NCBI GenBank assembly: GCA_041752595.1
Contig: JBGSWE010000004.1
Location: 151,057-215,056, forward strand
Origin: Candidatus Saccharimonadales bacterium
Lineage (GTDB): Bacteria; Patescibacteriota; Saccharimonadia; Saccharimonadales; JACDBH01
Direction: 5' to 3'
DNA: 64,000 nt
In this document: positions 9,364 to 56,921 of the stretch, one piece after another
Numbering within the stretch: position 1 is the stretch's first letter
Layout: each line of letters opens with the position of its first letter
Translations under genes and position numbers: made by a program
The notes under the pieces: generated by a model
Seen by the model: only the letters and a program-made list of their open reading frames with translations
Told to the model about the DNA's origin: nothing
Databases searched by the model: none

Positions 9364-10116
9364 ATGAAAAAAACTAGAAAAATAAGTATTAAGAAAAATA
9401 AAGGTCGCAAATTTTCAATTAGCTACGGTAAAAAAACCATCAATCTTATTGCCAATAAGGTGATAATTTTTCGACTTATGCGTAATCTGCATGGTCGATT
9501 TTGGGGAGTGGCAGGTCTCGGTATCATGTTGCTTGGACTAATAGTTTGCTTACTAGTGCGTCCAGACATGTTTTTACTGTCAACTGCGTACAGCGAGTTT
9601 GGTCGTGATGTAAGGACGGCGCCGTATTTAGCCGTATCATTATTTTTCGGTGCATACGGTTTGTGGCGTTGGCGCAACTACCTAAGACGCACATTAAGGC
9701 ACGCTAGGCCAGTTACTACTTTGGTTGGCTTTACTGTTGCTGGTCTTTATATTGCCGCTCTTATGCCGATTGCATGGGAACCATGGCCATATCGCCTGCA
9801 TGTTTTTGGCGTGGCTTTAGCTGCTGTTAGTATGGCGCTGACAGTTGTTATCGACACATTGTTAACAAAAACTCGTAAAAATAAGCGTTTACAGCTTTGG
9901 AGAATGCTTAGGTTGGTTTCTTTTATTTTGATAGTTATTGGTGGTTATTTAACTCTTGGATCAAACAGTAACTTAAACTGGTTTCAGTTAGCATTATTAG
10001 GAGAGTTAATGATTTTCTTTGGTTATGGTATTTGGGTCATCGACAAAACATACAGAGGAGAAGGAGCAAGGTCATACTTCTCAAGATTATTAAGCAAAGT
10101 AGTACTGATTGACTAA
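9364..10116 (+). CDS. Hypothetical polytopic membrane protein
   Basis: 250 aa with about 6 TM helices. It converges on crtEb with a 4-nt 3' overlap. The start is uncertain, since the basic N-terminal 40 aa may not be translated. Confidence 0.45.
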   Translation: MKKTRKISIKKNKGRKFSISYGKKTINLIANKVIIFRLMRNLHGRFWGVAGLGIMLLGLIVCLLVRPDMFLLSTAYSEFGRDVRTAPYLAVSLFFGAYGLWRWRNYLRRTLRHARPVTTLVGFTVAGLYIAALMPIAWEPWPYRLHVFGVALAAVSMALTVVIDTLLTKTRKNKRLQLWRMLRLVSFILIVIGGYLTLGSNSNLNWFQLALLGELMIFFGYGIWVIDKTYRGEGARSYFSRLLSKVVLID

Positions 10117-10970
10117 ACCAAGTGTGTGTTAATGAGTAATATCGTAATAACAAAACCAACAAAGTAGTTTAATTTCATGAATCTTTTCCAGCCTCTATTT
10201 GAAAGTGATGATTTAGCATCAGATATATCCCAGTAAGGCAGTATATTAAATACGTAACTAAATCCCACTATACCTACAATCATCGGACCTGTGCCCTTAA
10301 GCAGTAAAAGTTCACAAGCTACTAAATAAAGCACTATACTTAGTCTTACGGTCCACTTAGCACCTAAAAAAGTCGCTATAGACGATATATTAGCTTTTCT
10401 ATCGGGAACAATGTCCTGAACTGCTCCAAATGCATGACTAGCCATACCCCACAAGAAAAAGCTTACTACGAATGGTAGATAGTATTGGTCCCAGCCAGTT
10501 AAAGCAATTGCGTATAACAATGGTCCTGCAAAATGTGCTGCAGATGTAGCCGAATCTAGAACTGGCCTTTCTTTAAACCTTAGATATGGCAAACTGTAGG
10601 CTAAGACCATAAAAATCACCAGCAATAAAACTGTATTTGCACCTACACTTCCCTGAGAAATCATCCAGAATATAAAAGGTATATTTAGTAATATTGCTGA
10701 TATAAGAGTTGTTTTATGTAGTGACTTCTCAAGGACTACACCTTCTAAGCCTGATTTCCTGGGATTACGTTTGTCAGATTCATAATCAAAAACGTCATTA
10801 ACCCCATACATTAATAAATTATAAGGAATAAGAAAATACAGAGTACCAATAATGAATAACTTATCTACTTCACCGCCAGTTACTAAATAGGCTGCTCCAA
10901 AAGGAAATGCTGTATTCACCCAAGAAATGGGTCTAGAAGACATAATTAATCGTTTAATTGTGTGGATCAT
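10113..10970 (-). CDS. crtEb: UbiA-family prenyltransferase, lycopene-elongase-like
   Basis: 285 aa, polytopic. It has the Asp-rich motifs NDVFDYESD and QDIVPDRK. It is the last gene of the crt operon and has a TAATG overlap with the upstream gene. Confidence 0.7.
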   Translation of the reverse strand: MIHTIKRLIMSSRPISWVNTAFPFGAAYLVTGGEVDKLFIIGTLYFLIPYNLLMYGVNDVFDYESDKRNPRKSGLEGVVLEKSLHKTTLISAILLNIPFIFWMISQGSVGANTVLLLVIFMVLAYSLPYLRFKERPVLDSATSAAHFAGPLLYAIALTGWDQYYLPFVVSFFLWGMASHAFGAVQDIVPDRKANISSIATFLGAKWTVRLSIVLYLVACELLLLKGTGPMIVGIVGFSYVFNILPYWDISDAKSSLSNRGWKRFMKLNYFVGFVITILLINTHLV

Positions 10971-11257
10971 TATTCTTTACTCCCCAAATATTTCCATACA
11001 GTAGGTATTATCATCATACCTGCTATTGTATACGCAAAATCTTCAATTGGGGCCATTCCTATAAAAAGATTAAGGTAACTATCATCATTATAGGCAACTA
11101 TTTCGTTACCAACAATTAGTGAGTCAAAAATTGCTGTCATAACAAGAAGTACTAATGTAGCCAAGAACCATTTTTTATTAAACAGATCTTTATTATAAAA
11201 CCATGTAATTAGAAAAACGATTAAGACAATTATTGAATTTAGTATCAAGTATCTCAT
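10970..11257 (-). CDS. Lycopene-cyclase-domain small subunit (CrtYf/CrtYd-like)
   Basis: 3 TM helices and an APIEDFAY motif. I place the start at Met17 of the tracked ORF, because that ATG forms an ATGA overlap (11254-11257) with the upstream stop. Confidence 0.7.
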   Translation of the reverse strand: MRYLILNSIIVLIVFLITWFYNKDLFNKKWFLATLVLLVMTAIFDSLIVGNEIVAYNDDSYLNLFIGMAPIEDFAYTIAGMMIIPTVWKYLGSKE

Positions 11258-11565
11258 TCTACTTTTCCTAATGATTTTCGCCACACTAGTAATATGGTGT
11301 AGCAAAGTAGTAATAAAAAGAATAACTCCTCGATTGGCACTTCATACATTACTCTAATTCCCGTAAGGTATCTAGCTGATCCAACATAAAATATATTTAA
11401 AACTACCCCCAAAATATCCCAAATTAAGAAAAAACCAATTGAAACGATAAGTGTTATTAGAGTTCTTTTTCTATCAACAAAGAATGCAAGTTTGTACCTA
11501 TAGTCTGCTAATGATAGCCCTGCTATAGAAATAATTAACAGAAATAAATATAAGAATTTGATCAT
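11254..11565 (-). CDS. Lycopene-cyclase-domain small subunit (CrtYe/CrtYc-like)
   Basis: 103 aa with 3 TM helices. It has LADYRYKLAFF near the N-terminus and a VPIEELFF motif (the PxEE of the heterodimeric cyclase family). Confidence 0.7.
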   Translation of the reverse strand: MIKFLYLFLLIISIAGLSLADYRYKLAFFVDRKRTLITLIVSIGFFLIWDILGVVLNIFYVGSARYLTGIRVMYEVPIEELFFLLLLCYTILLVWRKSLGKVE

Positions 11566-13097
11566 TAAATTTTTGGTAGTTTTGTTAACGGCGATGAAGA
11601 CCGATCATTTGATAAATGTTTAACAATTAATTCTGCGCTTATTAAGCACATTGGCAAACCAACACCAGGAATTGTGTTGCCGCCTACGTAGTATAGATTA
11701 TTAACTTTTTTACTCTTGTTTCTTGGCCTAAACAGGGCACTTTGTCGAAGTGTATGGCTAAGTCCTAAGGCGCTACCCTGCCAAGAGTTGTAATCGTTTG
11801 TAAAATCAGTTGGAGTATAGGTCTGCTTATAAACTATACGACTATCTAGATCTGGTTCGCCAATAACATGTTTGAACTGTTCGTAATATTGTTTAACGAG
11901 CTTAGTTCGCTCAGACTTAGACATATCTCTAGCTGGTAAAGGTACAAGAATGAATATGTTTTCATGCCCTTTTGGTGCTACGGAATTATCTGTAGCACTG
12001 GGTTTACAGACATAAATTGATGCCGGAGTGGGCCAATCTTTTGTTTCAAATATTTCTTTAAAGTTTTTCTTCCAATCCTTAGTAAAGTATAGATTATGAT
12101 GCTCTAATTGAGGCAATGATCCTTTGACTCCAATGTAGTAAAGCAGCGCAGAGGGTCCGGCAGTGCGTTTCCCCCAATATTTTGCAGGATAAGATTGGTG
12201 ACTCGCGTCTAGCAATTTTGTTTCTGTGAAATGTAGATCGGCATTACTAATCACAATATCCGATTTAATAACCTCACCACTCATAAGTTCAATGGCTGTT
12301 GCACGTTTGTCTTTAACAATAATCTTTTTGACTGGAGCGCTAGTAATCATATTCACGCCGAGTTTTTTAGCTATGCCAATTAGCGAGTCTATTACGTTGT
12401 ATATACCACCCTTAGGATAGAAAACTCCTTCTTCGAAATCCATATAACTCATTAAATGATAAAGTGCCGGTGCATTATATGGTGAGGCACCTAAGAAAAC
12501 CATTGGGTATTCTAGTATTTGTTTCAGTCTTTGATCTTCAAAATATTTACTTACATAATTATCGATAGATTGAGTAGCAACAGAAGCCATGAACGGACCG
12601 CTTTTTAATATGCTTGGTTTAGTAAAACCTTTTACACCGTTAAAATTAGTGTATAAAAAGGAATCAATTGCAGTTAAGTAGGTACCCTTGGCTCTAGAAA
12701 CATATTTTTCTAGCGATTCCCCACTTCCTTGCTCAATAGATTCAAAAGTTTTAGAGTCTAGTTTTAAATTACCGGCTACAGTAATTGGTTCATTATCCTC
12801 AAAAAATACTTTATATGCAGGACTAAGTTTTTGAAGCTTCAAATGCTTATTAATGTCTTCACCAATTAGCTCATAAAAATGCTCAAACACTTTTGGCATC
12901 AAATACCACGATGGACCCATATCAAAAGTAAAGCCATCTATTTTGAACTGTCTTGCCCTACCCCCTAGATTATCTAGTTTTTCATAGAGGCTGACTTCGT
13001 GGCCTTGTTTTGCAAGTAATATGGCTGTTGCTATACCACCAATACCTCCACCGATAATTGTTACAGTTTTAGAATTATCAGACATTTTAGGATACAA
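11565..13097 (-). CDS. crtI: Phytoene desaturase
   Basis: 510 aa. N-terminal FAD Rossmann motif TIIGGGIGGIATAILLAKQGHEVSLYEKLDNLGGRA, and a C-terminal GGNTIPGVGLP. Confidence 0.9.
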   Translation of the reverse strand: MYPKMSDNSKTVTIIGGGIGGIATAILLAKQGHEVSLYEKLDNLGGRARQFKIDGFTFDMGPSWYLMPKVFEHFYELIGEDINKHLKLQKLSPAYKVFFEDNEPITVAGNLKLDSKTFESIEQGSGESLEKYVSRAKGTYLTAIDSFLYTNFNGVKGFTKPSILKSGPFMASVATQSIDNYVSKYFEDQRLKQILEYPMVFLGASPYNAPALYHLMSYMDFEEGVFYPKGGIYNVIDSLIGIAKKLGVNMITSAPVKKIIVKDKRATAIELMSGEVIKSDIVISNADLHFTETKLLDASHQSYPAKYWGKRTAGPSALLYYIGVKGSLPQLEHHNLYFTKDWKKNFKEIFETKDWPTPASIYVCKPSATDNSVAPKGHENIFILVPLPARDMSKSERTKLVKQYYEQFKHVIGEPDLDSRIVYKQTYTPTDFTNDYNSWQGSALGLSHTLRQSALFRPRNKSKKVNNLYYVGGNTIPGVGLPMCLISAELIVKHLSNDRSSSPLTKLPKI

Positions 13098-13929
13098 CTC
13101 TATTTAGTGAATTCTTTGCACGTACAGATGCTAATATCTGTGCTTTTTTTAAATCAGTTATACGCACACGAGAAGTAGAGATGATACTAGCTGGTGTTTC
13201 GTCTAATTTTATTAACAGGGCAAAATAATAACGTGTTGCAACAGTGACTGCTGTTTTAGAGTTTTTTGGTAGTTGGTGTAGTGCGGGGATTGAGTGTGAA
13301 AAATCATGCTTAATATCTAAAACTATCTTATCTTTTGTAGCGTCATCTAGAATATTATTTTTGACTTCTGGAAAATACGAACGACCTAGTGTGCGAGTAT
13401 CCTCAGCAAAGTCACGCAAAAAATTCACTTTTTGAAATGCTGCCCCTAATGCTTCTGCCCCAGGCTTAAGGTGTGCATAGGTAGATTCATTGCCATCGGT
13501 AAAAACTCTTAAGCACATCAGTCCGACAACCTGGGCGGAGCCATAAATGTATTTATCATAAAGTGCTCTAGTGTATTTGACTGGCGGCGTAATATCCATC
13601 TCCATGCTACTAAGAAATGGATCTATAAGTTCACTGCCGAATTTGTACTGTTTTGCAGTTGCTACAAAGCTGTGAATAATTGGATTTGTACTAAAACCTG
13701 TTTCTAGAGCTCGGTAGGTGTCTTTTTTGAAGTTATCTAAGACTTCTCTTGCATCATCTCCTTTATAGGTGTCTACTATTTCATCTGCAACCCTAACCCA
13801 ACCATATATATTGAAAATGTGAGGCCTAATACTAGAATCATATAACCTCGATGCTGAGCCAAACGAAGTAGAGTATCGAATAGTTAATAGTCTTGATAGT
13901 TCAGCTGCTACGCTAGTGTAAGTATCCAT
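13087..13929 (-). CDS. crtB: Phytoene synthase
   Basis: 280 aa. It has the squalene/phytoene synthase signatures YGWVRVADEIVD, YGSAQVVGLMCLRVF and QKVNFLRDFAED. Confidence 0.9.
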   Translation of the reverse strand: MDTYTSVAAELSRLLTIRYSTSFGSASRLYDSSIRPHIFNIYGWVRVADEIVDTYKGDDAREVLDNFKKDTYRALETGFSTNPIIHSFVATAKQYKFGSELIDPFLSSMEMDITPPVKYTRALYDKYIYGSAQVVGLMCLRVFTDGNESTYAHLKPGAEALGAAFQKVNFLRDFAEDTRTLGRSYFPEVKNNILDDATKDKIVLDIKHDFSHSIPALHQLPKNSKTAVTVATRYYFALLIKLDETPASIISTSRVRITDLKKAQILASVRAKNSLNRVVS

Positions 13930-13930
13930 A

Positions 13931-15034
13931 TTATTTATTTCTTACAGTCATTGCTTTTACTAGATCATGATATAAGGCTTTTGATTCTTCGCTAATACTT
14001 AATGACGCTATTAACTCGTTTGCTTTATTAGCTAATTCGCTAATTTTTTGTTCGGCAGCCGCTTTGGCGCCGCATTCAATAAATATTTTACGAATTTCAT
14101 CGGCTTGTTCGGCTGTGACTAATTTATTTCCATAATTACTGGCTACAAAGGCTTGCTGTTGATCATCCATAAGTTTCCGAGCGTTTTGAGCCATCCAGGT
14201 TCTTCGGCCTTCGCGAATATCGCCAATAGTGCTTTTGCCGGTAATGTTTTCGTCACCGAATACTCCAAGTAAATCATCACTTAATTGAAATGCAACACCA
14301 AGTTGCATGCCTAAATATTTTAATTTATCAAGCTCTTCATTTGATTGTTCTGAAAGAACAGCGCCAAATAGTAATGGCGTAACAAACGAATAATGCGCAG
14401 TTTTAGTTCGACTGACAGTTATTGGATCGGTTTCTTCTTCAGGATAAAGGATCGCTTCTGTATCAATTAATTCACCGCCAGAAACTGTAAAGATTGCTTC
14501 TGTAAGAAGATTTTGAGCCAATATTTTCTGCTGAGGTGAAAAATTAGTTTCATTAATGAGTTGATAAGAAGCGGAGATGTTTATATCGCCTGCTAGAATT
14601 GCCGCAGAGGTAGAAAAATGATCAATGTCTTCACCGGCTATATCTTGATAAATTTTTTTATATTGACCAGCAACATTAGGTACCCCATAACGAACAAAAT
14701 CTCTATCGATAATATCGTCGTGAATTAACATTGCGGTATGTATCATTTCAAGTGAGGCACCAGCCTTACATATATCGAGATATTCAAGACCTCCATAAGC
14801 TTCGTAGGTTATAACTGCAATGTATGGACGCATTCTTTTACCACCAGCCCTAGACAGATTATGAATTACATCTATTAGCGTTTTGAATCTTGGGTGAATC
14901 AAACCCGCTTTTGAGGAACTGAGTGAATAATAATCATCAATTATTTTATTTACATGTTCAATAGTTTCTTCTTTCTTATGAATGAAGGTATTACCAGTTG
15001 TTAATTGATCTTTTTGTGATGAGGTTGGTTTCAT
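13931..15034 (-). CDS. crtE: Polyprenyl (geranylgeranyl) diphosphate synthase
   Basis: 367 aa. It has the first and second Asp-rich motifs LIHDDIIDRD and QLSDDLLGVFGD. Confidence 0.85.
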   Translation of the reverse strand: MKPTSSQKDQLTTGNTFIHKKEETIEHVNKIIDDYYSLSSSKAGLIHPRFKTLIDVIHNLSRAGGKRMRPYIAVITYEAYGGLEYLDICKAGASLEMIHTAMLIHDDIIDRDFVRYGVPNVAGQYKKIYQDIAGEDIDHFSTSAAILAGDINISASYQLINETNFSPQQKILAQNLLTEAIFTVSGGELIDTEAILYPEEETDPITVSRTKTAHYSFVTPLLFGAVLSEQSNEELDKLKYLGMQLGVAFQLSDDLLGVFGDENITGKSTIGDIREGRRTWMAQNARKLMDDQQQAFVASNYGNKLVTAEQADEIRKIFIECGAKAAAEQKISELANKANELIASLSISEESKALYHDLVKAMTVRNK

Positions 15035-15096
15035 AAATATAATTGATTATATTATATCGCGACCTTTGATTTCTTGCTAGGTTTAGACTACTCTAA

Positions 15097-15125
15097 TTGA
15101 CAATTATTAAAAAGTGTGCTATAAT
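15097..15125 (+). promoter_or_regulatory. Consensus sigma70-type promoter
   Basis: TTGACA (15097-15102), a 17-nt spacer ending in TGc, then TATAAT (15120-15125). It lies 66 nt upstream of the 15192 start. Confidence 0.6.
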
Positions 15126-15191
15126 TATATAAATAGGATCAAATATAAACTAAATTGGTAAATTATTTAAATAATTACTAGAATACAATAA

Positions 15192-16118
15192 ATGCAAGAT
15201 AAATTTCCGAAAATACCGGCTGAGTACATAGTGCCCCTTAATATGAATGGATTAAGGGGTCGCATGTTGCGTATGCCTGCACCAAAAGGTAAAAAGCGCG
15301 AAGTATTACTGATCTATGGACATCACGCCAGTTTAGAGAGAATGTACAGTATCGCAGAGGTTATTAATGATTACGCGGGTGTTACTATGCCGGATCTGCC
15401 AGGTTTTGGTGGTATGGATAGTTTTTATAAAATCGGAGAAAAACCCGACATTAACACCATGGCAGATTATTTGGCATCGATTATTAAGATGCAATATAGG
15501 GGTAAAAGATTGTCTATAGCTGGAATATCCTACGGCTTCATTATTGTAACCAGGATGTTACAAAGATATCCTGAAATAGCAAAGAAAGTAGATTTACTAA
15601 TTAGCGTAGTTGGATTTGCTCACCACGAAGATTTTGTGTTTAGCCCAAATCGTTTTAGGTTTTATAAATATGGAGCTAAATTCTTTTCTTATCCTATTAC
15701 GGCTAGTTTATTTAGAAATATTGCCCTCCACCCTACAGTTCTTCGTAATTTATATAGCAAAACACATAATGCCAAACATAAGTTTGCCGATCTTGAGCCC
15801 GAAGAAGCTAAGATACTAACTGAATTTGAAGTACATCTTTGGCGCATAAATGACGTCAGAACCTACATGGCCACTAGTTATAGTTTCTTGACATTTAATA
15901 ACTGTGAATCAAGAATTGACTTGCCCGTTTGGCATATTGGCGTAGAAATGGATAATTATTTTGATAACGACGTTGTAGAGCAACACATGAGAGTGATATT
16001 TAATGATTTTCAATATGTCGCAGCTCCTGTAAAAAAACATATGCCAAATGTTATTGCAGGTAAAAAAGAGTCTGCTAAAATTTTCCCTGCCAAAATCAGA
16101 AAACTACTGGCGTCTTAA
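15192..16118 (+). CDS. Alpha/beta-fold hydrolase
   Basis: 308 aa. It has a nucleophile elbow GISYG and an LLIYGHH oxyanion region. Confidence 0.6.
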   Translation: MQDKFPKIPAEYIVPLNMNGLRGRMLRMPAPKGKKREVLLIYGHHASLERMYSIAEVINDYAGVTMPDLPGFGGMDSFYKIGEKPDINTMADYLASIIKMQYRGKRLSIAGISYGFIIVTRMLQRYPEIAKKVDLLISVVGFAHHEDFVFSPNRFRFYKYGAKFFSYPITASLFRNIALHPTVLRNLYSKTHNAKHKFADLEPEEAKILTEFEVHLWRINDVRTYMATSYSFLTFNNCESRIDLPVWHIGVEMDNYFDNDVVEQHMRVIFNDFQYVAAPVKKHMPNVIAGKKESAKIFPAKIRKLLAS

Positions 16119-28762: not shown

Positions 28763-29028
28763 GAATAAAATCCTTTTATACTAACTTTTATTTAGTTAAC
28801 TTGTTCGACCTAATTTAGTTAACTTTGATTACAGACGAAAAACGTCTTCGTATTACTACAAAGACGTTATATGAATAACAATTAATGTTTTTCACCTCGG
28901 TAGCATTCTTAAATTCATTTGTTTAGGATGAATCGCTACTATCTTTGGTAATCAGATATTATTATACTTTATATTGTAGTTGTTGTAAATAATTTAAGAA
29001 ACCTACAGCTATATATAAATGATAAACA

Positions 29029-29841: not shown

Positions 29842-30150
29842 ATGACAGTCCTAGAAGCAGAACAGGTCGAGCCCAGGATAGAATTGCCTGCCGGAATAGA
29901 GATAAATAGTGAAGTTGTAAGCGACTTAGGAACTATTACTCTTCTTGCGGGCAATGTTTTAATTGTAAAAATTGATCCAGAAATTATAAATACCTATCAA
30001 AAGCATTCTGCTGAAGGTGTGGCATTATCTGGTTTACTATTTAATCTAAGGGAAAAATTAAGTAAAGAGCATCAACTGATTTTTAGTACTGTACCTGGTG
30101 AACCATCCAAGATTGGAATATGGGTAGGTTTAGATGACGGAGACAATTAA
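29842..30150 (+). CDS. Hypothetical protein
   Basis: I place the start at the internal ATG, which is preceded by AAGGAG (29832-37). The tracked N-terminal extension would run through the terminator. Confidence 0.5.
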   Translation: MTVLEAEQVEPRIELPAGIEINSEVVSDLGTITLLAGNVLIVKIDPEIINTYQKHSAEGVALSGLLFNLREKLSKEHQLIFSTVPGEPSKIGIWVGLDDGDN

Positions 30151-32477
30151 CTAATTTGATTCAATTTGAATTGAGTGTAGCGCTCAGCTGCCAGTCTAGA
30201 CAGTTCTTGGTCTTCGCCTTTATTAACAAACTTCATAGCGGTTGCAAGTAGTGGGTGTACTTCCGATAGCTTATCGTGCATTTCCTTAACAAGTTTTCTA
30301 TAGCCAGGATGACCTTGTGGTGATGTTCTAAGTTCGTGCAAATGGAAAGCTTCGCGTGCGTTATATGTTATCTTCCAGCGCATACGATGACCTAGGAGAG
30401 TTGCATACTGCGCTTCTAATTCATAGTTCTTACTTTGTAGTAGGCTAAATAATTCTGCGGCCATATCAAAACATGATTCATAATCATCAGCTAGACCAGC
30501 CTGCTCTATTAGACTAGGCATATCAAATCCATATCTTGGAGTAAGTTGTTGCCATTCTAAACTATCAACCATTCTGTGTCTTTGTAGGTCTCTAAATATT
30601 CCATAATCACAAATAAGATCGTAAGAATAGTGGGCTATTTCTAATGCTCTGCCCGGTTTATGTCTTCTGTTTAGCCTTTCTCCAATATATGTATCAAAAG
30701 TTTCCAGTTTTTGTTCATAGCTCCAGTTTGCAACTTCTTTATGTAGGTCTTTTAAACTCATATTACTGTGTTCGTAAAGCATGTGAGGTAGTAGATCCAG
30801 TTCGTTCCTGGGCCAATAATCAACTAGCTGAACGTCTTCATCTAATGATCCTGAATTGTTTGGAAGGAGTTTATCGTTAATATTTCGCATAGCACTATGC
30901 GTACTTGCCTTATAGGCAATGTTTGCCCCTCCCCTATCTGGCTTATCAGCTCTTTCTAGGAATGTGGGCATCGTTTTACGTGCTTCTATTAGCATAGCTT
31001 CTCCGGTAGTTTTGGCTTCAGGCAGGTCGTCGGAAAGCAAATGCATAATTAAACTTTCTAATGCTTGTCCTGAGGCAAATATTCCAACAGTTGATTTTGT
31101 GGCAACCGGTAAAACGGCCCTAACCGCATCACATGCTTGAGCTCTTGATGCTCCCTGGAATGCTACATCCCTTTCACTTTCTGGTACATTACTGTGTTCA
31201 CGCACATAAGAAGTTAGGACATGTACCATTTCTGAATATTTATCAAAAATAGCATCCATAGTTTCAATATATTTTGATTTTACTTCTTCTGATAATTGTT
31301 CGGGCACAAAATAACGGTACATTCCATTATTATCTTTTTGATCAAAATATATATAGCGAGTTGATTGCTCTAGGTAAGATGCAAGTCGACCCCACTCCAA
31401 TTTTTTGGTTAATAGATTACTGGCATTTTCTACAACTAAATGTTGTCCAACTAGTTGTTGAACAGAATCGTCACCGTAAGCTGTTATTACGCGGTGTAAA
31501 AGTTTCTCATCTTTGCCCTTTGCTCCTGCAAATTCATCTAGAATTGTAATGCGCATATCATCACCGCGACGACTTAGTCGGGCCATTGCTGCTGCAACTG
31601 TAGTTGCGGATAGCTTATCTGTAAATGCATAAACATCGCCATCGACATTTGTGACTGCTGATTCAAGTAACTCCCGACCTTCTGTAGTGATTATAAAGTT
31701 GCCATTTTTATTTTTCTTCACAAACAACGGATCATTATCTAGTTTATTTGGAGCAACTATTTCTTCTTGTTTTTGTTTAATAACTTCTTGAATAGGTGTA
31801 GCTGGTTTTGTATGTACGCTCAGTGGTGGTGCTGTTTCTGATACCGTTTTAGCTTTACTGATGTTTCCATGTAGTGCATTCCAGATACTTACTGAAATCT
31901 CATCAATTTCATTAGATGCGTTAATTACTTGATAATCTCTTTGTTTTGCCTCCCAAAGATAGCCAGCTCGGACTCTTTCTAAAAATGCTTCATCTAAATT
32001 ATCAAATCGTTCACCTGCCCCTCGTTTTTCCGCTCGGTCTCGCAGCGTAGCAACAGGTGCGTCAAGGATTATAGTCATATCTGGTTCCATATCACCTACT
32101 GCAAAATCAATTATTTTTGTGATTGTTTCGTAATCTGGGACATCACCACGACCATAATACTGAATAGCTAGAGTGCTAAGGTAGTTTCTGTCACATAAAC
32201 ATATGACTCCTTGTTCACGAGCCTTTCTAATAACCTCAAGTGACTGGCTACGAGCTGCGTTGTACAGTAATGCTTCTGTACGAGTGTTCATAGGATATTG
32301 AGGGTCCTGAGTCAGCATACGAAGCGTACGAGCGGTAATGTCGCTTTGGCTGTCTGGCTCCCTGAATAGTCTAACTGGGTATCCTTGCTCGCGTAGGCGT
32401 TCAGCAAGTAATTCGAGCTGCGTAGTTTTGCCGGAGCCTTGAGGACCTTCCAGTACAATATAGCGGCCACTATTCAT
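30147..32477 (-). CDS. Fusion protein: thymidylate kinase + tandem ThyX-like (flavin-dependent thymidylate synthase) domains
   Basis: 776 aa. The N-terminal roughly 200 aa look like Tmk (VLEGPQGSGKTTQ P-loop). The C-terminal roughly 550 aa hold two ThyX-like halves: one degenerate (WGRLASYLEQSTRY) and one with the RHR motif (DLQRHRMVDS...TPRY). Confidence 0.8.
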   Translation of the reverse strand: MNSGRYIVLEGPQGSGKTTQLELLAERLREQGYPVRLFREPDSQSDITARTLRMLTQDPQYPMNTRTEALLYNAARSQSLEVIRKAREQGVICLCDRNYLSTLAIQYYGRGDVPDYETITKIIDFAVGDMEPDMTIILDAPVATLRDRAEKRGAGERFDNLDEAFLERVRAGYLWEAKQRDYQVINASNEIDEISVSIWNALHGNISKAKTVSETAPPLSVHTKPATPIQEVIKQKQEEIVAPNKLDNDPLFVKKNKNGNFIITTEGRELLESAVTNVDGDVYAFTDKLSATTVAAAMARLSRRGDDMRITILDEFAGAKGKDEKLLHRVITAYGDDSVQQLVGQHLVVENASNLLTKKLEWGRLASYLEQSTRYIYFDQKDNNGMYRYFVPEQLSEEVKSKYIETMDAIFDKYSEMVHVLTSYVREHSNVPESERDVAFQGASRAQACDAVRAVLPVATKSTVGIFASGQALESLIMHLLSDDLPEAKTTGEAMLIEARKTMPTFLERADKPDRGGANIAYKASTHSAMRNINDKLLPNNSGSLDEDVQLVDYWPRNELDLLPHMLYEHSNMSLKDLHKEVANWSYEQKLETFDTYIGERLNRRHKPGRALEIAHYSYDLICDYGIFRDLQRHRMVDSLEWQQLTPRYGFDMPSLIEQAGLADDYESCFDMAAELFSLLQSKNYELEAQYATLLGHRMRWKITYNAREAFHLHELRTSPQGHPGYRKLVKEMHDKLSEVHPLLATAMKFVNKGEDQELSRLAAERYTQFKLNQIS

Positions 32478-42230: not shown

Positions 42231-42300
42231 AGAAGTACAAAGTTAGCATAAAGGTCTCCAAAACCTTAGATCGTGGTTCGATTCCACGTACCCCTGCCAA
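42231..42300 (+). pseudogene. tRNA-Trp pseudo-copy / att-like direct repeat
   Basis: 42248-42300 is a 53-bp perfect copy of 41434-41486 (tRNA positions 24-75 plus 1). The D-arm region is about 80% similar. The 5' acceptor strand is not complementary, so it cannot fold into a tRNA. Confidence 0.85.
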
Positions 42301-42309
42301 ACTAATTTA

Positions 42310-43869
42310 TCATTGTTTTTCTGCCAAAAGTACTGCATCTGAATAACCAGATGGATAAGTAAGAGGCAATGTGCCACTAGCTTGAAATGTACCCATAGTA
42401 ACCGTTGCAGCATTCGTAGGATTAAACCATAATAACTTAATGGAACCACTACCGAATGACGCTAGATTAATTACAACATTTGATCTATTTGTTGGTATAT
42501 AGGCAATACCAATGCGATTATCAACAGATCTGGCTGATGTTGCATAGGTGTTAGTATTTACTGTTCCGTATCCGTTTGAAAGCATCTTTACACTGTTTCC
42601 AGCTTTGTGATCCGGCACTAATTCTACCTTATACTTGTTCATAAAAGCAATTAGACGTGCAACATCTTGACCTGAAGTATCCTGCATTGCATTTCGCCAT
42701 CTTGTGTCTACATCCCAAATATCCTCATGTCCATAACCATAGCCAACACCGCCACTAGTAAATGTCCAATAACCCTGTGATCTTAATCTACGGTTATCTG
42801 GTATCTGTTCTGGGAAATTATTAAGTCTTGGAAGTGTATTTCTTGCGTCGTACCATGCTTCGATTGTTATCACTGGTCTTATAGGTGAATTGTTATAATC
42901 CTTTATAGCTTCAATGTACGTTCTTTCGTCAGGATATGAGTATGACACTGTAAGCCATGCTTCATTATTAAAATATTGCGTAACTGAGTCGTTTCGGCTA
43001 GCGTGGTATCCCATTAAATGTCTAACAGACTCATTATTTCTGATAGCATTTGCCATGTTTTTTGTTGCTTGTACTTTGTCACTTTTATCTAAATTAGTTG
43101 GTACTTTAGAAATTGATTCGACTGTAACGTCAGGATCATTATCCCCACCCATAATCCACATTAGATTTTTCTTGTCTCCAAAACGCTTAGCGACGAATGT
43201 TCCATAGGTTGTTGCGTTCGTATTGTTTATATACGGACGCCAGTCTTCACCCCCATACCCATACCAAGCTGGAGCGAAGTTTATTTGTATGTTTCGAGAA
43301 GCAGCTTGGTCAATAATATAATCAATGTGATCCCAGTAATCATAGTCGGGACTAGATGCATTCGATGTTCTTGCACCAACTTCTTTAGGAGTAGATATAT
43401 TATATTTATCAGTAAAAGGAGCATCTCCGTAAATATTCGATATATTAGTGCCCTTATCTGGCATGGCTAATATATGCATTTGTACAGTATTGAATCCTTT
43501 CGCTTTTCTATCGTCTAAATGAGAAACTATATCTGACTGATTCATCCTTGTTGAGTGCAACCAACCCGTATCAGCGTAATAATAAAAAAACTTGTTATCT
43601 GCAGTTATAAATGATCTCCCATTAGCACTAACCTTGATTGGATATGTTCCACCGCTTGGCGGAGGTGTAACAGGTGTACTAAAAACAATCGAGGAACCAT
43701 TTGACGCAAGTGTGTCGCTGTTTTTTGAAACATTAGCACTAAGAGTACTGTTCTCTGCTTCATAAACAATAGATGGCAGGTTTGCTGCGATTAAACTTGG
43801 TAGATAAATCAAACAAATAATTGATACTACAGCAATAGAAATTTTTAAATTCTTTTTATTTATTAGCAT
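42310..43869 (-). CDS. Secreted glycoside-hydrolase-like protein (DUF4038/GH5-GH140-like)
   Basis: I place the start at Met21 of the tracked ORF, which gives a signal-peptide-like N-terminus. YYYADTGWLHSTRMNQSDIVSHLDDRKAKGFNTVQMHIL resembles the (beta/alpha)8 hydrolase DUF4038 N-terminus. Confidence 0.55.
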   Translation of the reverse strand: MLINKKNLKISIAVVSIICLIYLPSLIAANLPSIVYEAENSTLSANVSKNSDTLASNGSSIVFSTPVTPPPSGGTYPIKVSANGRSFITADNKFFYYYADTGWLHSTRMNQSDIVSHLDDRKAKGFNTVQMHILAMPDKGTNISNIYGDAPFTDKYNISTPKEVGARTSNASSPDYDYWDHIDYIIDQAASRNIQINFAPAWYGYGGEDWRPYINNTNATTYGTFVAKRFGDKKNLMWIMGGDNDPDVTVESISKVPTNLDKSDKVQATKNMANAIRNNESVRHLMGYHASRNDSVTQYFNNEAWLTVSYSYPDERTYIEAIKDYNNSPIRPVITIEAWYDARNTLPRLNNFPEQIPDNRRLRSQGYWTFTSGGVGYGYGHEDIWDVDTRWRNAMQDTSGQDVARLIAFMNKYKVELVPDHKAGNSVKMLSNGYGTVNTNTYATSARSVDNRIGIAYIPTNRSNVVINLASFGSGSIKLLWFNPTNAATVTMGTFQASGTLPLTYPSGYSDAVLLAEKQ

Positions 43870-43986
43870 TAAAAAAATATTATCTATCCTGATATTTATA
43901 ATATGCTTCATTATAAACAAGCTTAACAATTATAAAATATATAGTAAATATTCTTTTCAACAGAAGAAACGGAAGAATAGATAAGT

Positions 43987-45396: not shown

Positions 45397-46110
45397 TTAT
45401 TTTGAGTCAGAACCTCTCATTTTGAGTATCATTCCAAGTGATACGATTCCAAATACTGCCTTTGCTGTTACGTCTAGGAACGCATATAGAGCTGTTTCTG
45501 TATCGATTGATACATAACCATATCCAGATTCTCCTAGTAACCAAACAACTGGGTACCATATCCATACTGCACTCAGAAACACGAGTAGAGTCATGTACAA
45601 GTCATCTGTTTTAGCTCCGTGTGCTTTGGCATGTTTACGAAGTTCTGTAAACATTAACCATATTAGTACTAAGAACCACAAACAACTTGCTATATACCAT
45701 ACAGCTATGTCTTGTGTGTCTGTGCTAAAGTTTGCAATTGCACCGGTTGCAATCATGGCAACATCGGCAAATAGTATCGCACCGATCAAGCCTAGACGCT
45801 GTCTAGAGTGCTTGGCATCGCTAGCGTCAGGCATAGCAACTACTATTAGTGTCAGTAAGAGTAGTGGTGTGGTTAGTAGCCAATCAATGTAACGACCAAA
45901 GAATATGGTTTTATCATCTATCATTATCACACCCTGGCCGCTAGCCATAGAGTAATAAGCAGCTGCAGCAATGGTTGTTACCATCAATGCTAAAATTACG
46001 TGATATTTATGTTCTGCCTTGAACTTATTCCAGAACGTCAAGATACCAATGGTACCCAGAGTCATACCAGCGAATCCTAGCCACAACCAGGTAGTAGTTA
46101 AATCGTCCAT
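45397..46110 (-). CDS. Type-1 (microbial) rhodopsin
   Basis: 237 aa with 7 TM helices. Helix C reads RYIDWLLTTPLLLLT. Helix F reads WIWYPVVWLLG. Helix G reads FLDVTAKAVFG, which carries the Schiff-base Lys (K217). Confidence 0.9.
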   Translation of the reverse strand: MDDLTTTWLWLGFAGMTLGTIGILTFWNKFKAEHKYHVILALMVTTIAAAAYYSMASGQGVIMIDDKTIFFGRYIDWLLTTPLLLLTLIVVAMPDASDAKHSRQRLGLIGAILFADVAMIATGAIANFSTDTQDIAVWYIASCLWFLVLIWLMFTELRKHAKAHGAKTDDLYMTLLVFLSAVWIWYPVVWLLGESGYGYVSIDTETALYAFLDVTAKAVFGIVSLGMILKMRGSDSK

Positions 46111-46272: not shown

Positions 46273-46926
46273 TTAACTTTTTACGTCGCCCGTAAACCAA
46301 TCTCGTCTTAGACTTTCTAAAGGTAATCCGTTTTCAAGTAAATCCGCGCTTAAATTATCAACCATTTGATCTGGCCCTGATATATAGATCATCTTTTTGC
46401 TAATAAATTCAATCGATTCTATGTTAATACGTTTACTTTGAAATATTATTTCTAATTTTTCTTGTTTGCTTTGCCATAATTCAAATTCATCTTTAAATAA
46501 AAAGCTATTATTACTCGAACTGTATATTAACTTTACATTTATCTCTTTATTATCGTTTAGAGCTTGTGACAATATTGATCTAAACGGCGTTATACCTACT
46601 CCACCCGCCAGAAAGATTTTAGGCTTATCATCATCTGTCCACACAAAATCACCCTCTATGTTATAGCCATTTATAACACTCCCGATTTTTAACTGTGCGA
46701 GATTTTGTTTAAACTCACTTGTTCCGATCCAGGTTGTTATCTGAATATGTTTTTCGTGAGGGGCCGATGCGATCGTAAAGCGCCTTTCATCCACTCCCCA
46801 GGAATTTCTAGGTAATTCTAGCCTAATTGACTGGCCTGCAAGCCAGCTAGCTGCTTCGACTGGCTCAAAATAATACGACCATATTTCTTGGCCTTCGTCT
46901 TTTTTACTTAAGTAACGTAACTTCAT
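46273..46926 (-). CDS. Ferredoxin-reductase-like FAD/NAD(P)-binding oxidoreductase
   Basis: It has an RRFTIASAP flavin-binding motif and an AGGVGITPFRSIL nucleotide-binding motif. The start is either the ATG at 46926 or the GTG at 46947. It is very AT-rich. Confidence 0.65.
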   Translation of the reverse strand: MKLRYLSKKDEGQEIWSYYFEPVEAASWLAGQSIRLELPRNSWGVDERRFTIASAPHEKHIQITTWIGTSEFKQNLAQLKIGSVINGYNIEGDFVWTDDDKPKIFLAGGVGITPFRSILSQALNDNKEINVKLIYSSSNNSFLFKDEFELWQSKQEKLEIIFQSKRINIESIEFISKKMIYISGPDQMVDNLSADLLENGLPLESLRRDWFTGDVKS

Positions 46927-46956
46927 TATTAGGTTATTGTAACCCACTAAAAAGTA

Positions 46957-47143: not shown

Positions 47144-47464
47144 ATGCGTAATAGCCTCTCTTTTAATCAAAACAAAAACATTATTGACGTTTTATTCTCA
47201 TTTAGTGGGCGCGACCAGTATGCTCGCCCTGTTCGTCTTACCTGGGAGGGTGAAGATTATTTCTTGGGCGGAGTCCAGTTTTGGTATGCCGAACACAAGG
47301 GTTCGGTCTTAGTTCATCATTACCGAATTAGCGATGAATACGGCGAATATACCTTTGAGCTATCACTCGAGACAGAAAACCTCATATGGAGCCTAGACAA
47401 AGTCACCGAATCTAGTTCAACCGGTACAAATCTTGTAAGCAAGTTTGTAGGAGCGACAGCATGA
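47144..47464 (+). CDS. Small protein, paralogue A (unknown family)
   Basis: 106 aa. The core RLTWEGEDYFLGGVQFWYAEHKGSVLVHHYRISDEYGEYTFELSLETENLIWSL aligns with the next ORF. Confidence 0.6.
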   Translation: MRNSLSFNQNKNIIDVLFSFSGRDQYARPVRLTWEGEDYFLGGVQFWYAEHKGSVLVHHYRISDEYGEYTFELSLETENLIWSLDKVTESSSTGTNLVSKFVGATA

Positions 47465-47754
47465 GGCCGTCACTAGATGAGCCAATCAGTGTGGTGTGGT
47501 ACTACAACGCCAAGCTACGCTCGCAACAGCCATATATGCTGACCTGGAATAATCAAGATTATCATTTAGGCAAAGTGGATTTCTGGCACAAGACCTGGAG
47601 CGGCAAACATCAGATCCATCATTTTTCTATCAGCGACAAAGACGGAGGCGCCTATTTTAAGCTCGCCCTCAACACTGACACACTTAATTGGGTGCTTGAG
47701 GAATATATGAGCGCTCATGATGCCGCAATAACTTATGGAAGGAGCACGGCATGA
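47461..47754 (+). CDS. Small protein, paralogue B (unknown family)
   Basis: 97 aa. ATGA overlap with paralogue A and an AGGAG SD. The core is MLTWNNQDYHLGKVDFWHKTWSGKHQIHHFSISDKDGGAYFKLALNTDTLNWVL. Confidence 0.6.
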   Translation: MRPSLDEPISVVWYYNAKLRSQQPYMLTWNNQDYHLGKVDFWHKTWSGKHQIHHFSISDKDGGAYFKLALNTDTLNWVLEEYMSAHDAAITYGRSTA

Positions 47755-50764: not shown

Positions 50765-50861
50765 ACACAGAAATAGTAAAATAACCTGTAAAAAGTCTTT
50801 GATATTATGCATAAGCTCTTTATACTATTAGTTAAAGCAAACTAAAAGTTGATTGAGGGCG

Positions 50862-52085
50862 ATGAAGGTATTAATGCTAGGGTGGGAACTACCACCTCAC
50901 AACAGCGGTGGACTGGGAGTAGCATGCTACCAACTCTGCAAAGCACTATCTTCTAAGGGAGTTGGTATTGAATTTGTTATACCCTATACCGCTGACCATA
51001 GTTCTATAGATTTTATGAACGTTCACCCTGCTCACCCTCAGGGAATTACGGCGATTCTTAAAAGCGGTATCGCATACGATAGCTACAAATACGTTTACGA
51101 AGATGGTCACGAAGAATGGTTTAACATGCACGATCAGCAAGCCGCCTACGAAAAAGCTGTTGGTGATTTGGTACCACTTATGAATTTTGACGTAATACAC
51201 GCTCATGATTGGTTAACTTTTAGGGCTGGTTTGCGAGCTCGTCACATCAGTGGAAAACCGCTTATTTTGCACGTTCACTCTATTGAGTCTGATCGTTCGG
51301 CAAAAGCTGGGGGCGGCAATCCATTGGTTCGTGAAATTGAAGGGCTTAGCTTTTTAATGGCAGATCGTATAATTGCAGTTAGTCAGTTCACAAAAGACGC
51401 AATTATCCGTGAATATGACATCCCGTCAGACAAAATTGATGTTGTTCATAATAGTCTAGATCTTGAAATGGTAGAACCATTGGCAATAGAAAGCACACAT
51501 AGTTATTTACATGCTATGAGAGCTCGAGGATACCGAGTGGTTGTCAGTATTGGCAGATTAACTATCCAAAAAGGTTTAACCAATCTGTTGTATGCAGCTA
51601 AAGCGGTAGTAGATAATCACCCTAAAACCATATTTCTGATCGTTGGATCCGGCGAACAATATACAGAACTTATTGAGCTGGCGGCAGAGTTAGGCATTAG
51701 CCAGAATGTAATATTTAGTGGTTTTCAACGCGGCGCTAGATGGCGTGACAGTTTTGCGGTAGGTGATTTATTCGTAATGCCTTCTGTTTCAGAACCTTTT
51801 GGTTTAACTCCTTTAGAGGCAGCAGGATATGGCACGCCATCACTAATATCAAAGCAATCAGGTGTTGCAGAAGTATTTACAAACTGCCTCAAGGTTGATT
51901 TTTGGGATATTAACGAAATTGCTAATCAGATCGCATCTGTAGTTAAGAACGATGCCCTTAGAGACGAGTTGCACATTAATGCTCAAAGCGAATACAACAA
52001 TTTATCTTGGCACCCAGCAGCCGATAAGTTAATTGACTGGTACAATCACCACACCAGCGATCAATTAGAGGCGGTTGCATCATGA
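50862..52085 (+). CDS. Glycogen/starch-synthase-like GT-B glycosyltransferase
   Basis: I place the start at the ATG (MKVLMLGWELPPHNSGGLGV). It has the E-x7-E motif (SEPFGLTPLEAAGYGTP). Confidence 0.75.
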   Translation: MKVLMLGWELPPHNSGGLGVACYQLCKALSSKGVGIEFVIPYTADHSSIDFMNVHPAHPQGITAILKSGIAYDSYKYVYEDGHEEWFNMHDQQAAYEKAVGDLVPLMNFDVIHAHDWLTFRAGLRARHISGKPLILHVHSIESDRSAKAGGGNPLVREIEGLSFLMADRIIAVSQFTKDAIIREYDIPSDKIDVVHNSLDLEMVEPLAIESTHSYLHAMRARGYRVVVSIGRLTIQKGLTNLLYAAKAVVDNHPKTIFLIVGSGEQYTELIELAAELGISQNVIFSGFQRGARWRDSFAVGDLFVMPSVSEPFGLTPLEAAGYGTPSLISKQSGVAEVFTNCLKVDFWDINEIANQIASVVKNDALRDELHINAQSEYNNLSWHPAADKLIDWYNHHTSDQLEAVAS

Positions 52086-56267: not shown

Positions 56268-56921
56268 CTAAATAACAACTTTGCGGGGGCGTAGGACTCT
56301 ACGAGGCTTGCCGGCAGGCATTATGAGCTTATCTAGCTTTACTTTGAGTATATCGGCCTCTGTGAACATTTCCTTTGATTCATAGGCCCTAATTAGAAGC
56401 TGGAAGGTTTCTGGGTTTGGTTCTAGTTCTGTGGCCTTTTCTAGTTCTTGTAGCATTAGCTTGTCGTTACCTAGTTTTTCTTGTACTTTTGCGTAGGCAA
56501 TGTGTCTTGCAGCCAGAGAGTCCTCTAGTTTTAGTGCTTGTTCAAATGCCAGTCCGGCTTTAACGTAGTTTTCTGTTTCGTAATAAATTAAGCCTAGGTT
56601 GTGTAGTGACGAAGCGCTTGGGTCAATAGAGCTAGCAATTTCAAAACAATCAATCGCGTCCTTGTATTCCTTTTGCTTAGCATAGAGTATACCTAGGCGG
56701 TTATAGGCTGCTGCGTTCTTTTGATCGATCTTAAGTATGGTCAAAAGGGCCTTTTCGGCTCTTAAGAAACGGTTTTCGCGCATACCTTGGTGAGCAATAT
56801 CCCATAATTTACTCATTCTATCGCTGAGACGTTCAGCTGCAGGTGAAAGTTCTGTGTCTCTAATACGAGTACTGCGGTACGCAAGAATCCCAAATCCAAA
56901 CACAAATACTAAGGAAAACAT
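56268..56921 (-). CDS. Membrane-anchored TPR-repeat protein
   Basis: 217 aa with an N-terminal TM helix. It has about 4 TPR-like repeats (AAAYNRLGILYAKQKEYKDAIDCFEIA...). Confidence 0.7.
   Translation of the reverse strand: MFSLVFVFGFGILAYRSTRIRDTELSPAAERLSDRMSKLWDIAHQGMRENRFLRAEKALLTILKIDQKNAAAYNRLGILYAKQKEYKDAIDCFEIASSIDPSASSLHNLGLIYYETENYVKAGLAFEQALKLEDSLAARHIAYAKVQEKLGNDKLMLQELEKATELEPNPETFQLLIRAYESKEMFTEADILKVKLDKLIMPAGKPRRVLRPRKVVI

Follow-up and report, generated by a model that had tools for sequence, protein, structure and literature searches.

What does a tiny, metabolically reduced epibiotic Saccharibacterium make with a carotenoid operon? The question is raised by a Saccharimonadales contig of which a stretch of 64,000 nucleotides (the window) was analysed, and which carries at positions 10113-15034 of the minus strand six consecutive genes of a well-known pathway in a new host. 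Saccharibacteria copies of these genes were glimpsed earlier in two papers, where they were interpreted as ‘bacterioruberin’ or ‘ubiquinone ubiA’ genes (one of the two is PMC9948471). Judged from its sequence, the locus is probably an operon of six genes that is functional and vertically maintained and serves the synthesis of a cyclic C50 carotenoid.

All six ORFs and their junctions were read from the sequence and bear out the tight packing described in the first-pass annotation, with either a 1-nt gap or overlaps of 1-11 nt between neighbours. The gene of a polyprenyl diphosphate synthase (crtE-like, 13931-15034, 367 aa) is followed after 1 nt, in the arrangement TAA-T-ATG, by the phytoene synthase gene crtB (13087-13929, 280 aa). 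The phytoene desaturase gene crtI (11565-13097, 510 aa) overlaps crtB by 11 nt, as annotated, if translation begins at TTG 13097, while a start at ATG 13085 would give 506 aa and a 1-nt gap (TAA-A-ATG); the 510-aa form is absent from the protein collection in which the products of neighbouring genes are present, which hints at the ATG start. The genes of cyclase subunit 1 (11254-11565, 103 aa), cyclase subunit 2 (10970-11257, 95 aa) and a UbiA-superfamily protein (crtEb, 10113-10970, 285 aa) follow, with the junctions TAATG, ATGA (11254-11257) and TAATG (10968-10972), respectively. The subunit 2 ORF has a longer extent, 10970-11305; its N-terminus is alignable with homologues only from the overlapping ATG at 11257. 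Such translational coupling would maintain the stoichiometry of the subunits. The divergent, AT-rich intergenic region at 15035-15191 (157 bp) presumably harbours the operon promoter and contains, by match to consensus only, promoter-like sites on the minus strand (15171-15142) and a perfect TTGACA-17-TATAAT on the plus strand (15097-15125), facing the divergent alpha/beta-hydrolase gene.

The first three enzymes would convert IPP and DMAPP to geranylgeranyl diphosphate (GGPP), two GGPP to phytoene, and phytoene to lycopene. The family assignments of the first-pass annotation were reproduced by profile searches, in which CrtE matched PF00348 (162 bits, E 1.5e-47), CrtB matched PF00494 (131 bits, E 7.9e-38) and CrtI matched the TIGR02734 crtI_fam model (530 bits, cutoff 238). 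The motifs DDIID and DDLLG are present in the translation of CrtE, and that of CrtB contains the Asp-rich motifs DEIVD and RDFAED. Identity to the products of syntenic crtE genes is 31-42% (60+ loci) and to those of syntenic crtB genes 40-57%, with the exception of a non-orthologous crtB copy (locus L017 of the comparison, 28%). The best NCBIfam matches of CrtE are GGPP/GFPP synthase models, every one below its equivalog cutoff, and a C20 product (GGPP) is suggested by context only; CrtB likewise reaches no NCBIfam equivalog cutoff, and both shortfalls count against the cyclic C50 reading.

The UbiA-superfamily protein is an orthologue of the characterised CrtEb of Corynebacterium glutamicum, with 51.6% identity along the entire protein (287 aa, E 2e-102), followed by CrtE2 (47%), LbtC (44%) and a haloarchaeal LyeJ-type enzyme (34%); reference sequences of the characterised elongases and cyclase subunits were taken from the supplement of PMC6393565. 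It matches PF01040 (E 1.7e-23) and NF009608 (399 bits, cutoff 217) and contains the expected motifs NDVFDYESD and QDIVPD. We infer that the enzyme would transfer one DMAPP-derived C5 unit each to C-2 and C-2' of lycopene, giving a C50 intermediate that is still acyclic, akin to flavuxanthin or C.p.496. A grouping with MenA/UbiA/CyoE-type quinone or heme prenyltransferases, which the first-pass annotation had named as evidence that would speak against its reading, was not seen, the NCBIfam models of such enzymes scoring at most 43 bits against cutoffs of 270-420.

An elongase/hydratase of the LyeJ type would instead act together with CrtD and CruF to form an acyclic, bacterioruberin-type C50 product, and similar genes of Saccharibacteria/Patescibacteria from Lake Baikal have been read in this way, with lyeJ, crtD and cruF in Saccharibacteria-type genomes (PMC9948471). 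CrtI of the window is 41% identical to the product of the gene in the haloarchaeal crtD position, and its best equivalog-level match is to a ‘bifunctional phytoene desaturase/3,4-desaturase’ model, under the cutoff. Its score with NF058655 ‘CrtID’ is 572 bits (cutoff 640). Such a product is nevertheless improbable here, given the greater similarity of the elongase to CrtEb than to the LyeJ-type enzyme, the two cyclase subunits translationally coupled to it and the single CrtI-family gene of the window. No CruF homologue was found in the window by tblastn (E≤1) or by a Pfam scan of 48 ORFs, nor in any of the crt loci compared, the haloarchaeal reference locus excepted. Haloarchaeal crtD-lyeJ-cruF clusters, such as that on a plasmid of Halocatena salina (L084), resemble the window in having a lycopene C5-elongase of the UbiA superfamily and a desaturase of the CrtI family. 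They differ in that they encode CruF but lack the cyclase subunits, the reverse of what is seen in the window.

Both small subunits exceed the TIGR03462 cutoff of 39.4 bits (52.8 and 49.0 bits for subunits 1 and 2), a model that makes no distinction between C40 and C50 cyclases. Subunit 1 is 41-45% identical to CrtYe, 35% to LbtA and 28% to CrtYg, and conserves the motifs WD..G and PIEELFF; subunit 2 aligns with LbtB at 35% identity across 96 aa and with CrtYf at 33-40% across 57 aa, and conserves FD(N/S) and PIEDFAY, so that the PIEE and PIED motifs noted earlier are both present. The best matches of the two are CrtYe/Yf and LbtA/B, and CrtYg/Yh also match, which upholds their assignment as lycopene-cyclase-domain subunits and places them in a C50 context. 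In every characterised case two small cyclase subunits beside such an elongase give a cyclic C50 carotenoid (PMC6393565; PMC6669644). A heterodimer of these ~100-aa membrane subunits may thus close both ends of the elongated intermediate, and the end product would be a dihydroxy C50 pigment resembling decaprenoxanthin, sarcinaxanthin or C.p.450. Epsilon-, gamma- and beta-ring references are all similarly related to the subunits (25-36% identity).

The gene order had been equated with that of the decaprenoxanthin cluster of C. glutamicum. The six enzyme families and their succession are indeed common to both, as are overlapping ORFs for cyclase and elongase (PMC6393565), but the C. glutamicum operon, crtE-cg0722-crtB-crtI-crtYe-crtYf-crtEb, is interrupted between crtE and crtB by an additional gene (PMC5401885). 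The window, in a Saccharibacteria genome of ~36% GC, lacks the cg0722 transporter gene and the divergent MarR-type CrtR regulator; no MarR/CrtR-type gene, present in Actinobacteria, was found at its operon. Identity to C. glutamicum is 41% for CrtYe and 33% for CrtYf, and in place of FGYGD and P(L/I)EDLFY of Corynebacterium, subunit 2 has VAY(N/D)D and PIEDFAY, so the epsilon ring type is not to be assumed. The lbtA-lbtBC genes of Dietzia sp. CQ4 (C.p.450, beta rings) encode homologous cyclase subunits, of which LbtB has the motifs VAYDD and PIEDFAY in common with subunit 2 but is fused to LbtC, unlike in the window. Homologous subunits are also encoded by crtE2-crtYg-crtYh of Micrococcus luteus (sarcinaxanthin, gamma rings), where, in contrast to the window, the elongase gene precedes the cyclase genes. 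The uninterrupted order crtE-B-I-Y-Y-Eb is that of loci from Saccharibacteria, Microbacteriaceae and Luna-1 (Aquiluna/Rhodoluna); identity of the Microbacteriaceae and Luna-1 clusters to the window is only about 47-50%.

As previously noted, a rhodopsin is encoded in the same window (45397-46110, minus strand; PF01036, 171.6 bits), 30 kb from the operon. It is a SacR-family pump with the retinal lysine present. Actinobacteria include heterodimeric small-subunit C40 beta-cyclases. Together with the rhodopsin and the blindness of TIGR03462 to chain length, this would allow the small subunits to be of the CrtYc/CrtYd type, producing beta-carotene as a retinal precursor, with the UbiA enzyme otherwise employed. 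We give this reading little credence: the subunits overlap a CrtEb orthologue in every locus, and the characterised relatives compared, CrtYe/Yf, LbtA/B and CrtYg/Yh, are all C50 cyclases. No blh/BCD-family protein is encoded among the 48 window ORFs of at least 167 aa or adjoining related rhodopsins, crt genes do not occur within 10 kb of the latter, and no blh was found in rhodopsin-bearing Saccharibacteria by Jaffe et al. (PMC9296517). In Luna-1 genomes, a proton-pumping rhodopsin and crtEb occur together and blh is often missing (PMC12422013). The co-location of operon and rhodopsin is not a conserved linkage, and the operon does not account for the source of retinal. The cyclic C50 pigment would likely protect against light or stiffen the membrane in a habitat exposed to light, a role consistent with the SacR-type rhodopsin of the same genome.

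The pathway had been called complete, which holds from IPP and DMAPP onward but not upstream, no C5-precursor or idi gene having been found within the window. The idi gene adjoins crtE in 55 actinobacterial loci and in only two Saccharibacteria loci, the window not being among them. A lack of C5 isoprenoid synthesis has been reported for freshwater Saccharimonadia (PMC9166423), and this deficit, with the missing source in the window, counts against the cyclic C50 operon. An outside supply of C5 precursors to the operon is probably needed, with the host as a possible source.

Within the 80 best species genomes, the six-gene order recurs in 18 Saccharibacteria-type MAG loci, and it is found in about 60 actinobacterial loci, mostly of Micrococcales. 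Chimeric MAG contigs are possible, and the label ‘Chloroflexi’ of a related contig (L008) shows that binning errors occur, but an assembly or binning artefact that mixed DNA of Actinobacteria into a Saccharibacteria bin is hardly credible, and neither is an operon in decay that no longer functions, given six of six ORFs intact with their catalytic motifs, recurrence in 18 independent low-GC loci, CPR-type housekeeping genes on both flanks syntenic with Saccharimonadales MAGs, and an operon GC (0.34-0.37) equal to that of the flanks (window range 0.34-0.43) and far from the actinobacterial 0.62-0.75. The window backbone itself is identified as Saccharimonadales by its synteny with loci L003 and L004 (identity 50-71%).

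In concatenated trees (neighbour-joining only), the Saccharibacteria copies are monophyletic (bootstrap 100%), and their nearest relatives outside the group are the pair formed by L039 (Aquiluna) and L048 (76%; 73% after Dayhoff-6 recoding). The low-GC amino-acid composition common to both could contribute to this sister relation. Acquisition from an actinobacterial lineage, as first proposed, is supported by the phylogeny; this position and the GC equal to the flanks indicate an old, ameliorated transfer rather than a recent one, probably from a Micrococcales actinobacterium, nearest to Aquiluna-like freshwater relatives, to an ancestor of many Saccharimonadales. The 18 loci show that the operon occurs widely among environmental Saccharibacteria and is no peculiarity of the present genome. 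Catalytic motifs are kept in all 18 copies at a mean identity among them of only ~55%, and the order crtI, cyclase subunit(s), crtEb is identical in all loci long enough to show it. The operon flanks are not conserved across loci, which indicates that selection acts on the cassette as a unit.

The six minus-strand open reading frames of the carotenoid operon (10113-15034) lie exactly where the first-pass annotation had placed them in the window, and every motif quoted there was found in the translated ORFs. The genes are tightly joined: on the coding strand the crtE/crtB junction reads TAA-T-ATG, the crtI/subunit 1 and subunit 2/crtEb junctions both read TAATG, and the genes for the two small subunits share an ATGA overlap. 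At the crtB/crtI junction two starts are possible: from a TTG the genes overlap by 11 nt, and from an ATG four codons further on they are 1 nt apart; the absence of the 510-aa form of CrtI from the protein collection, in which products of the neighbouring genes are present, hints at the ATG start. Subunit 2 is 111 aa long from the TTG start in the mechanical ORF list and 95 aa long from the ATG inside the ATGA overlap, and its N-terminus lines up with those of its homologues only from this ATG. No terminator or promoter signals above the level of shuffled sequence were found inside the operon.

The proposed family assignments held in model searches, with matches to PF00348 in CrtE (162 bits), PF00494 in CrtB (131 bits), TIGR03462 in subunits 1 and 2 (52.8 and 49.0 bits; cutoff 39.4), and PF01040 in the UbiA protein (83.6 bits). 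CrtI matches TIGR02734 at 530 bits against a cutoff of 238, and the PF00348 and PF00494 matches likewise exceed their cutoffs. The genes crtE, crtB and crtI, which together account for lycopene formation, are thus all present in the cluster, and they are syntenic with actinobacterial clusters.

Two membrane proteins of 250 and 301 aa and an alpha/beta hydrolase were considered as further operon members and rejected, having no counterpart beside the operon elsewhere. The 250-aa multi-pass protein (9364-10116, plus strand), which belongs to no family and has no counterpart adjoining the operon in other loci, is convergent with crtEb and shares 4 nt with the 3' end of that gene. The intergenic region divergent from crtE contains a perfect TTGACA-17-TATAAT match with an extended -10 TG (15097-15125, plus strand), facing the alpha/beta-hydrolase-like gene (15192-16118).

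The UbiA protein encoded by crtEb (10113-10970) does not cluster with quinone or heme prenyltransferases; such clustering had been set beforehand as a refutation of its assigned role. The NCBIfam models of this type (UbiA, MenA, MqnP) score it at 19-43 bits against cutoffs of 180-420, while the 'prenyltransferase' model NF009608 matches at 399 bits (cutoff 217). In direct comparison with ORFs of experimentally characterised C50 enzymes taken from the supplement of PMC6393565, it is most similar to CrtEb of C. glutamicum (51.6% identity over 287 aa, E 2e-102) and C. efficiens (49.5%), followed by CrtE2 of M. luteus (47%) and LbtC of Dietzia (44%). It carries both the NDxxDxxxD and the DxxxD motifs and in a tree falls inside the CrtEb/CrtE2/LbtC clade relative to a LyeJ-type outgroup, the haloarchaeal reference being defined by crtD-lyeJ-cruF synteny on a Halocatena plasmid. 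A search of the PDB with the elongase gave no sequence relative at E<=0.001.

The small subunits likewise match the actinobacterial C50 type: as in those clusters, with their subunits of ~100-130 aa, two adjacent and overlapping lycopene-cyclase-domain proteins are present, each with a PxE(E/D) motif. Subunit 1 is nearest to CrtYe (41-45% identity), then to LbtA (35%) and CrtYg (28%), and subunit 2 matches LbtB (35% over 96 aa), CrtYf (33-40% over 57 aa) and also CrtYh. The WD..G, PIEE, FD(N/S) and PIED blocks are intact in the alignment to CrtYe/Yf, LbtA/B and CrtYg/Yh. A cyclic C50 carotenoid is the product of every characterised system that has this trio of an elongase and two small subunits (PMC6393565; PMC6669644). 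The reading as a complete actinobacterial-type cyclic C50 carotenoid operon appears from these comparisons to be essentially right, and a C50 product is predicted.

Two other products can be weighed against this prediction. It is highly improbable that the small subunits form a C40 beta-cyclase supplying beta-carotene, and hence retinal, to the rhodopsin encoded in the window. Retinal formation requires a beta-carotene 15,15'-dioxygenase, and PF15461 is absent both from the 48 window ORFs of at least 167 aa and from the surroundings of related rhodopsins. When both small subunits were searched by tblastn against plasmids for CrtYc/CrtYd-type C40 references, subunit 1 had no match and subunit 2 matched only an Arthrobacter C50 cluster; C40 activity is judged unlikely from gene context. 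A bacterioruberin pathway (LyeJ-CrtD-CruF) has equally little chance of being correct, given that it needs CruF, for which tblastn with the Halocatena protein gave no window match at E<=1 and none at E<=1e-3 in the fetched loci other than the haloarchaeal reference itself, that no match to PF04240 occurs among the 48 window ORFs, that only one CrtI-family gene is present in the window, and that the elongase is 34% identical over 217 aa to the LyeJ-type enzyme vs 52% over its full length to CrtEb.

With a cyclic C50 product as the preferred reading, the type of ring can be approached through the subunits, which when concatenated are 31-36% identical to the epsilon, 25% to the gamma and 33% to the beta references. 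In the subunit tree, Agromyces groups with the Corynebacterium epsilon-cyclases, in agreement with the production of decaprenoxanthin by Agromyces mediolanus (PMC6669644), and the Saccharibacteria together with Aquiluna-like sequences form a group apart from this epsilon clade, with low support. Subunit 2 has the VAY(D/N)D and PIEDFAY motifs that are also seen in the beta-type LbtB and in most Microbacteriaceae, in place of the FGYGD and PLEDLFY found in Corynebacterium; the motifs in common with LbtB may be taken as only a hint of ring type. A tandem pair of paralogous ORFs (47144-47464 and 47461-47754, plus strand; 106 and 97 aa, 4-nt overlap) with shared W-rich motifs (LTWEGEDYFLGGVQFW and LTWNNQDYHLGKVDFW) was considered as a second cyclase pair and rejected, these being soluble paralogues without a Pfam family.

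Carotenoid genes have been seen before in Saccharibacteria, but the complete cyclic C50 operon of actinobacterial type was not recognised in them. From Patescibacteria of Lake Baikal and from one Saccharibacterium, lyeJ, crtD and cruF were described and taken for bacterioruberin synthesis (Haro-Moreno et al., PMC9948471), and a built-environment study listed crtB, crtE, crtYf and 'ubiA (ubiquinone)' for a MAG of Saccharimonas (PMC11484240). The model scores contradict the ubiquinone reading of the homologous gene, and both published interpretations are corrected here. Jaffe et al. (PMC9296517) described rhodopsin-bearing Saccharibacteria without blh and did not discuss crt genes, and in the library searched, papers that combine Saccharibacteria with decaprenoxanthin, crtEb or crtYe were not found.

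The general view of Saccharibacteria and other CPR bacteria is that they cannot make lipids, cofactors or most secondary metabolites, which places an intact and widely conserved pigment pathway of six enzymes among their few complete anabolic routes. The operon is neither peculiar to the window genome nor mechanistically new, the enzymology being already known and the host lineage being what is unusual.

The description of the operon as complete applies from IPP and DMAPP onward and fails for the supply of C5 units, because no idi, MEP or mevalonate gene was found in the window, and freshwater Saccharimonadia were reported to encode only C10-C20 prenyl chain synthesis, with C5 synthesis absent (Chiriac et al., PMC9166423). 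Next to crtE, 55 actinobacterial loci carry a type-1 idi, and so do two from Saccharibacteria, where the homologues (L012 1107-1628 and L006 1429-1929) lie just upstream of crtE and are 40-41% identical to that of Marisediminicola. The host may be the source of IPP and DMAPP, and it is conceivable, if rather unlikely, that Saccharibacteria unable to make C5 units run the whole C50 pathway on host precursors. If so, the pigment would belong to a light-adapted lifestyle together with the SacR (Saccharibacteria DTS) rhodopsin, serving as a photoprotectant, a membrane stiffener or a rhodopsin-associated carotenoid, the last in the manner of bacterioruberin between archaerhodopsin subunits. In that case the Aquiluna/Rhodoluna-like donor lineage would indicate the natural freshwater host, in contrast to an earlier proposal of a Nanopelagicales host.

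The backbone of the window is that of a Saccharimonadales genome. The gene at 42310-43929 (minus strand) was rejected as a GroEL taxonomy marker, as it encodes a DUF4038/apiosidase-like hydrolase, and taxonomy was therefore settled by synteny with Saccharimonadales loci: housekeeping and glycan genes at 56268-59724 are syntenic with locus L003 (34-69% identity), and those at 50853-55219 with locus L004 (59-71%). The rest of the gene content is what one expects of a reduced CPR genome. Relatives of the DUF4038 glycoside hydrolase are very few, with 20 at E<=1e-50, the nearest named ones being from Myxococcota (46% identity) and Cellulomonas (36-38%); the gene may be another that was acquired horizontally. 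Between it and an HD-domain gene lies a partial tRNA match (42234-42288, plus strand; RF00005, 33.3 bits, model positions 9-63) with no ARAGORN call, which may be a fragment of a tRNA gene or a scar left by integration.

The best genomic relatives of the elongase are from Saccharibacteria MAGs (51-57% identity), with Microbacteriaceae close behind, and nearer metagenomic relatives reach 76%. All six genes occur in order in about 60 fetched loci, and crtI, the cyclase subunit(s) and crtEb keep one order in all fetched loci long enough to show them. Low-GC (40-55%) Saccharibacteria-type contigs make up 18 of the fetched loci, and about 60 are actinobacterial, mostly from Micrococcales. The flanks of the operon vary between Saccharibacteria lineages, identifying the cassette as the conserved unit.

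In the elongase-only tree, rooted on the LyeJ type, Saccharibacteria are nested within actinobacterial sequences with weak support; their monophyly received just 48%, so that concatenation was needed. In the neighbour-joining tree of CrtB, CrtI and CrtEb (1,031 columns), Saccharibacteria are monophyletic with 100% bootstrap support, both before and after Dayhoff-6 recoding. Their sister group consists of Aquiluna (L039) and L048, a related actinobacterium from surface water, with 76% support, or 73% after recoding; the trees are distance-based only, and these sisters have a low-GC amino-acid bias in common with Saccharibacteria. Another fetched locus, L017, should have been left out of the concatenation because its crtB and crtI are non-orthologous (26-28% identity), and its joining of the Saccharibacteria branch after recoding is an artefact. 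A MAG contig deposited as 'Chloroflexi bacterium' (SEAL01000015.1) carries the operon at 47% GC and sits inside the Saccharibacteria clade, adjoining L002; it is probably mis-binned.

Mean identity in the concatenated alignment is 55% within Saccharibacteria, 47% between Saccharibacteria and Actinobacteria, and 65% within Actinobacteria, and the GC content of the operon (0.34-0.37) is indistinguishable from that of the rest of the window. Together with the trees, these values suggest that the operon was acquired once, long ago, from Micrococcales and has since been inherited vertically over a long period. The first-pass annotation had proposed acquisition from Actinobacteria, possibly from the host; an old Micrococcales origin agrees with the trees and the GC content, and a recent acquisition from a current host is not supported. 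As past, perhaps present, partners the donor signal suggests Luna-type Microbacteriaceae, a concrete lead toward freshwater hosts.

The type-1 rhodopsin of the window (45397-46110, minus strand; PF01036, 171.6 bits) has 6kfq as its best solved relative and shows 44-75% identity to some 55 relatives, one of which is annotated as Saccharibacteria. By this similarity it would belong to the small SacR family. Of 57 rhodopsin sequences checked, a set that includes the window protein, 52 carry the helix C motif DTS; the window protein reads DTT (RYIDWLLTTPLLLLT), as does just one other. The retinal-binding lysine is present within DVTAKAVFG. By eye, against helix E of bacteriorhodopsin, a Tyr appears to occupy the site of the antenna glycine of xanthorhodopsin. 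Directly upstream on the same strand is an FNR-like oxidoreductase gene (46273-46947; PF00175, NAD_binding_1).

The rhodopsin does share the window with the operon, as pointed out earlier, but conserved physical linkage was rejected: no rhodopsin lies within 10 kb of the crt genes in crt loci L001-L081, and three related rhodopsin neighbourhoods have no crt genes within 10 kb and no blh. The latter hold photolyase or cryptochrome genes (PF00875, PF03441, PF04244; L085 18882-20429 and L090 11290-14124). One of these, L085, a 945-kb Saccharibacteria-like contig, also encodes two rhodopsin paralogues 8 kb apart (1775-2521 and 10001-10747). The rhodopsin and the crt operon probably share a sunlit habitat. 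The routing of lycopene to C50 products, as predicted, and the fact that no blh was seen fit the proposed reliance of SacR on outside retinal. The same combination of rhodopsin and crtEb without blh is described for Luna-1 Actinobacteria, which have a proton-pumping rhodopsin and crtEb and frequently miss blh (PMC12422013). The C50 operon thereby sharpens the questions of retinal source and host identity, and should be of note to CPR specialists.

Elsewhere in the window, a single 776-aa ORF (30147-32477, minus strand), its start overlapped by a dCTP-deaminase-like gene, joins a thymidylate kinase (PF02223) to two ThyX stretches (PF02511), an unusual fusion of dTTP-synthesis steps. An ordinary ribosomal protein L10 leader (28827-28966, minus strand; RF00557, 58.6 bits) is located upstream of the L10/L7-L12 genes.
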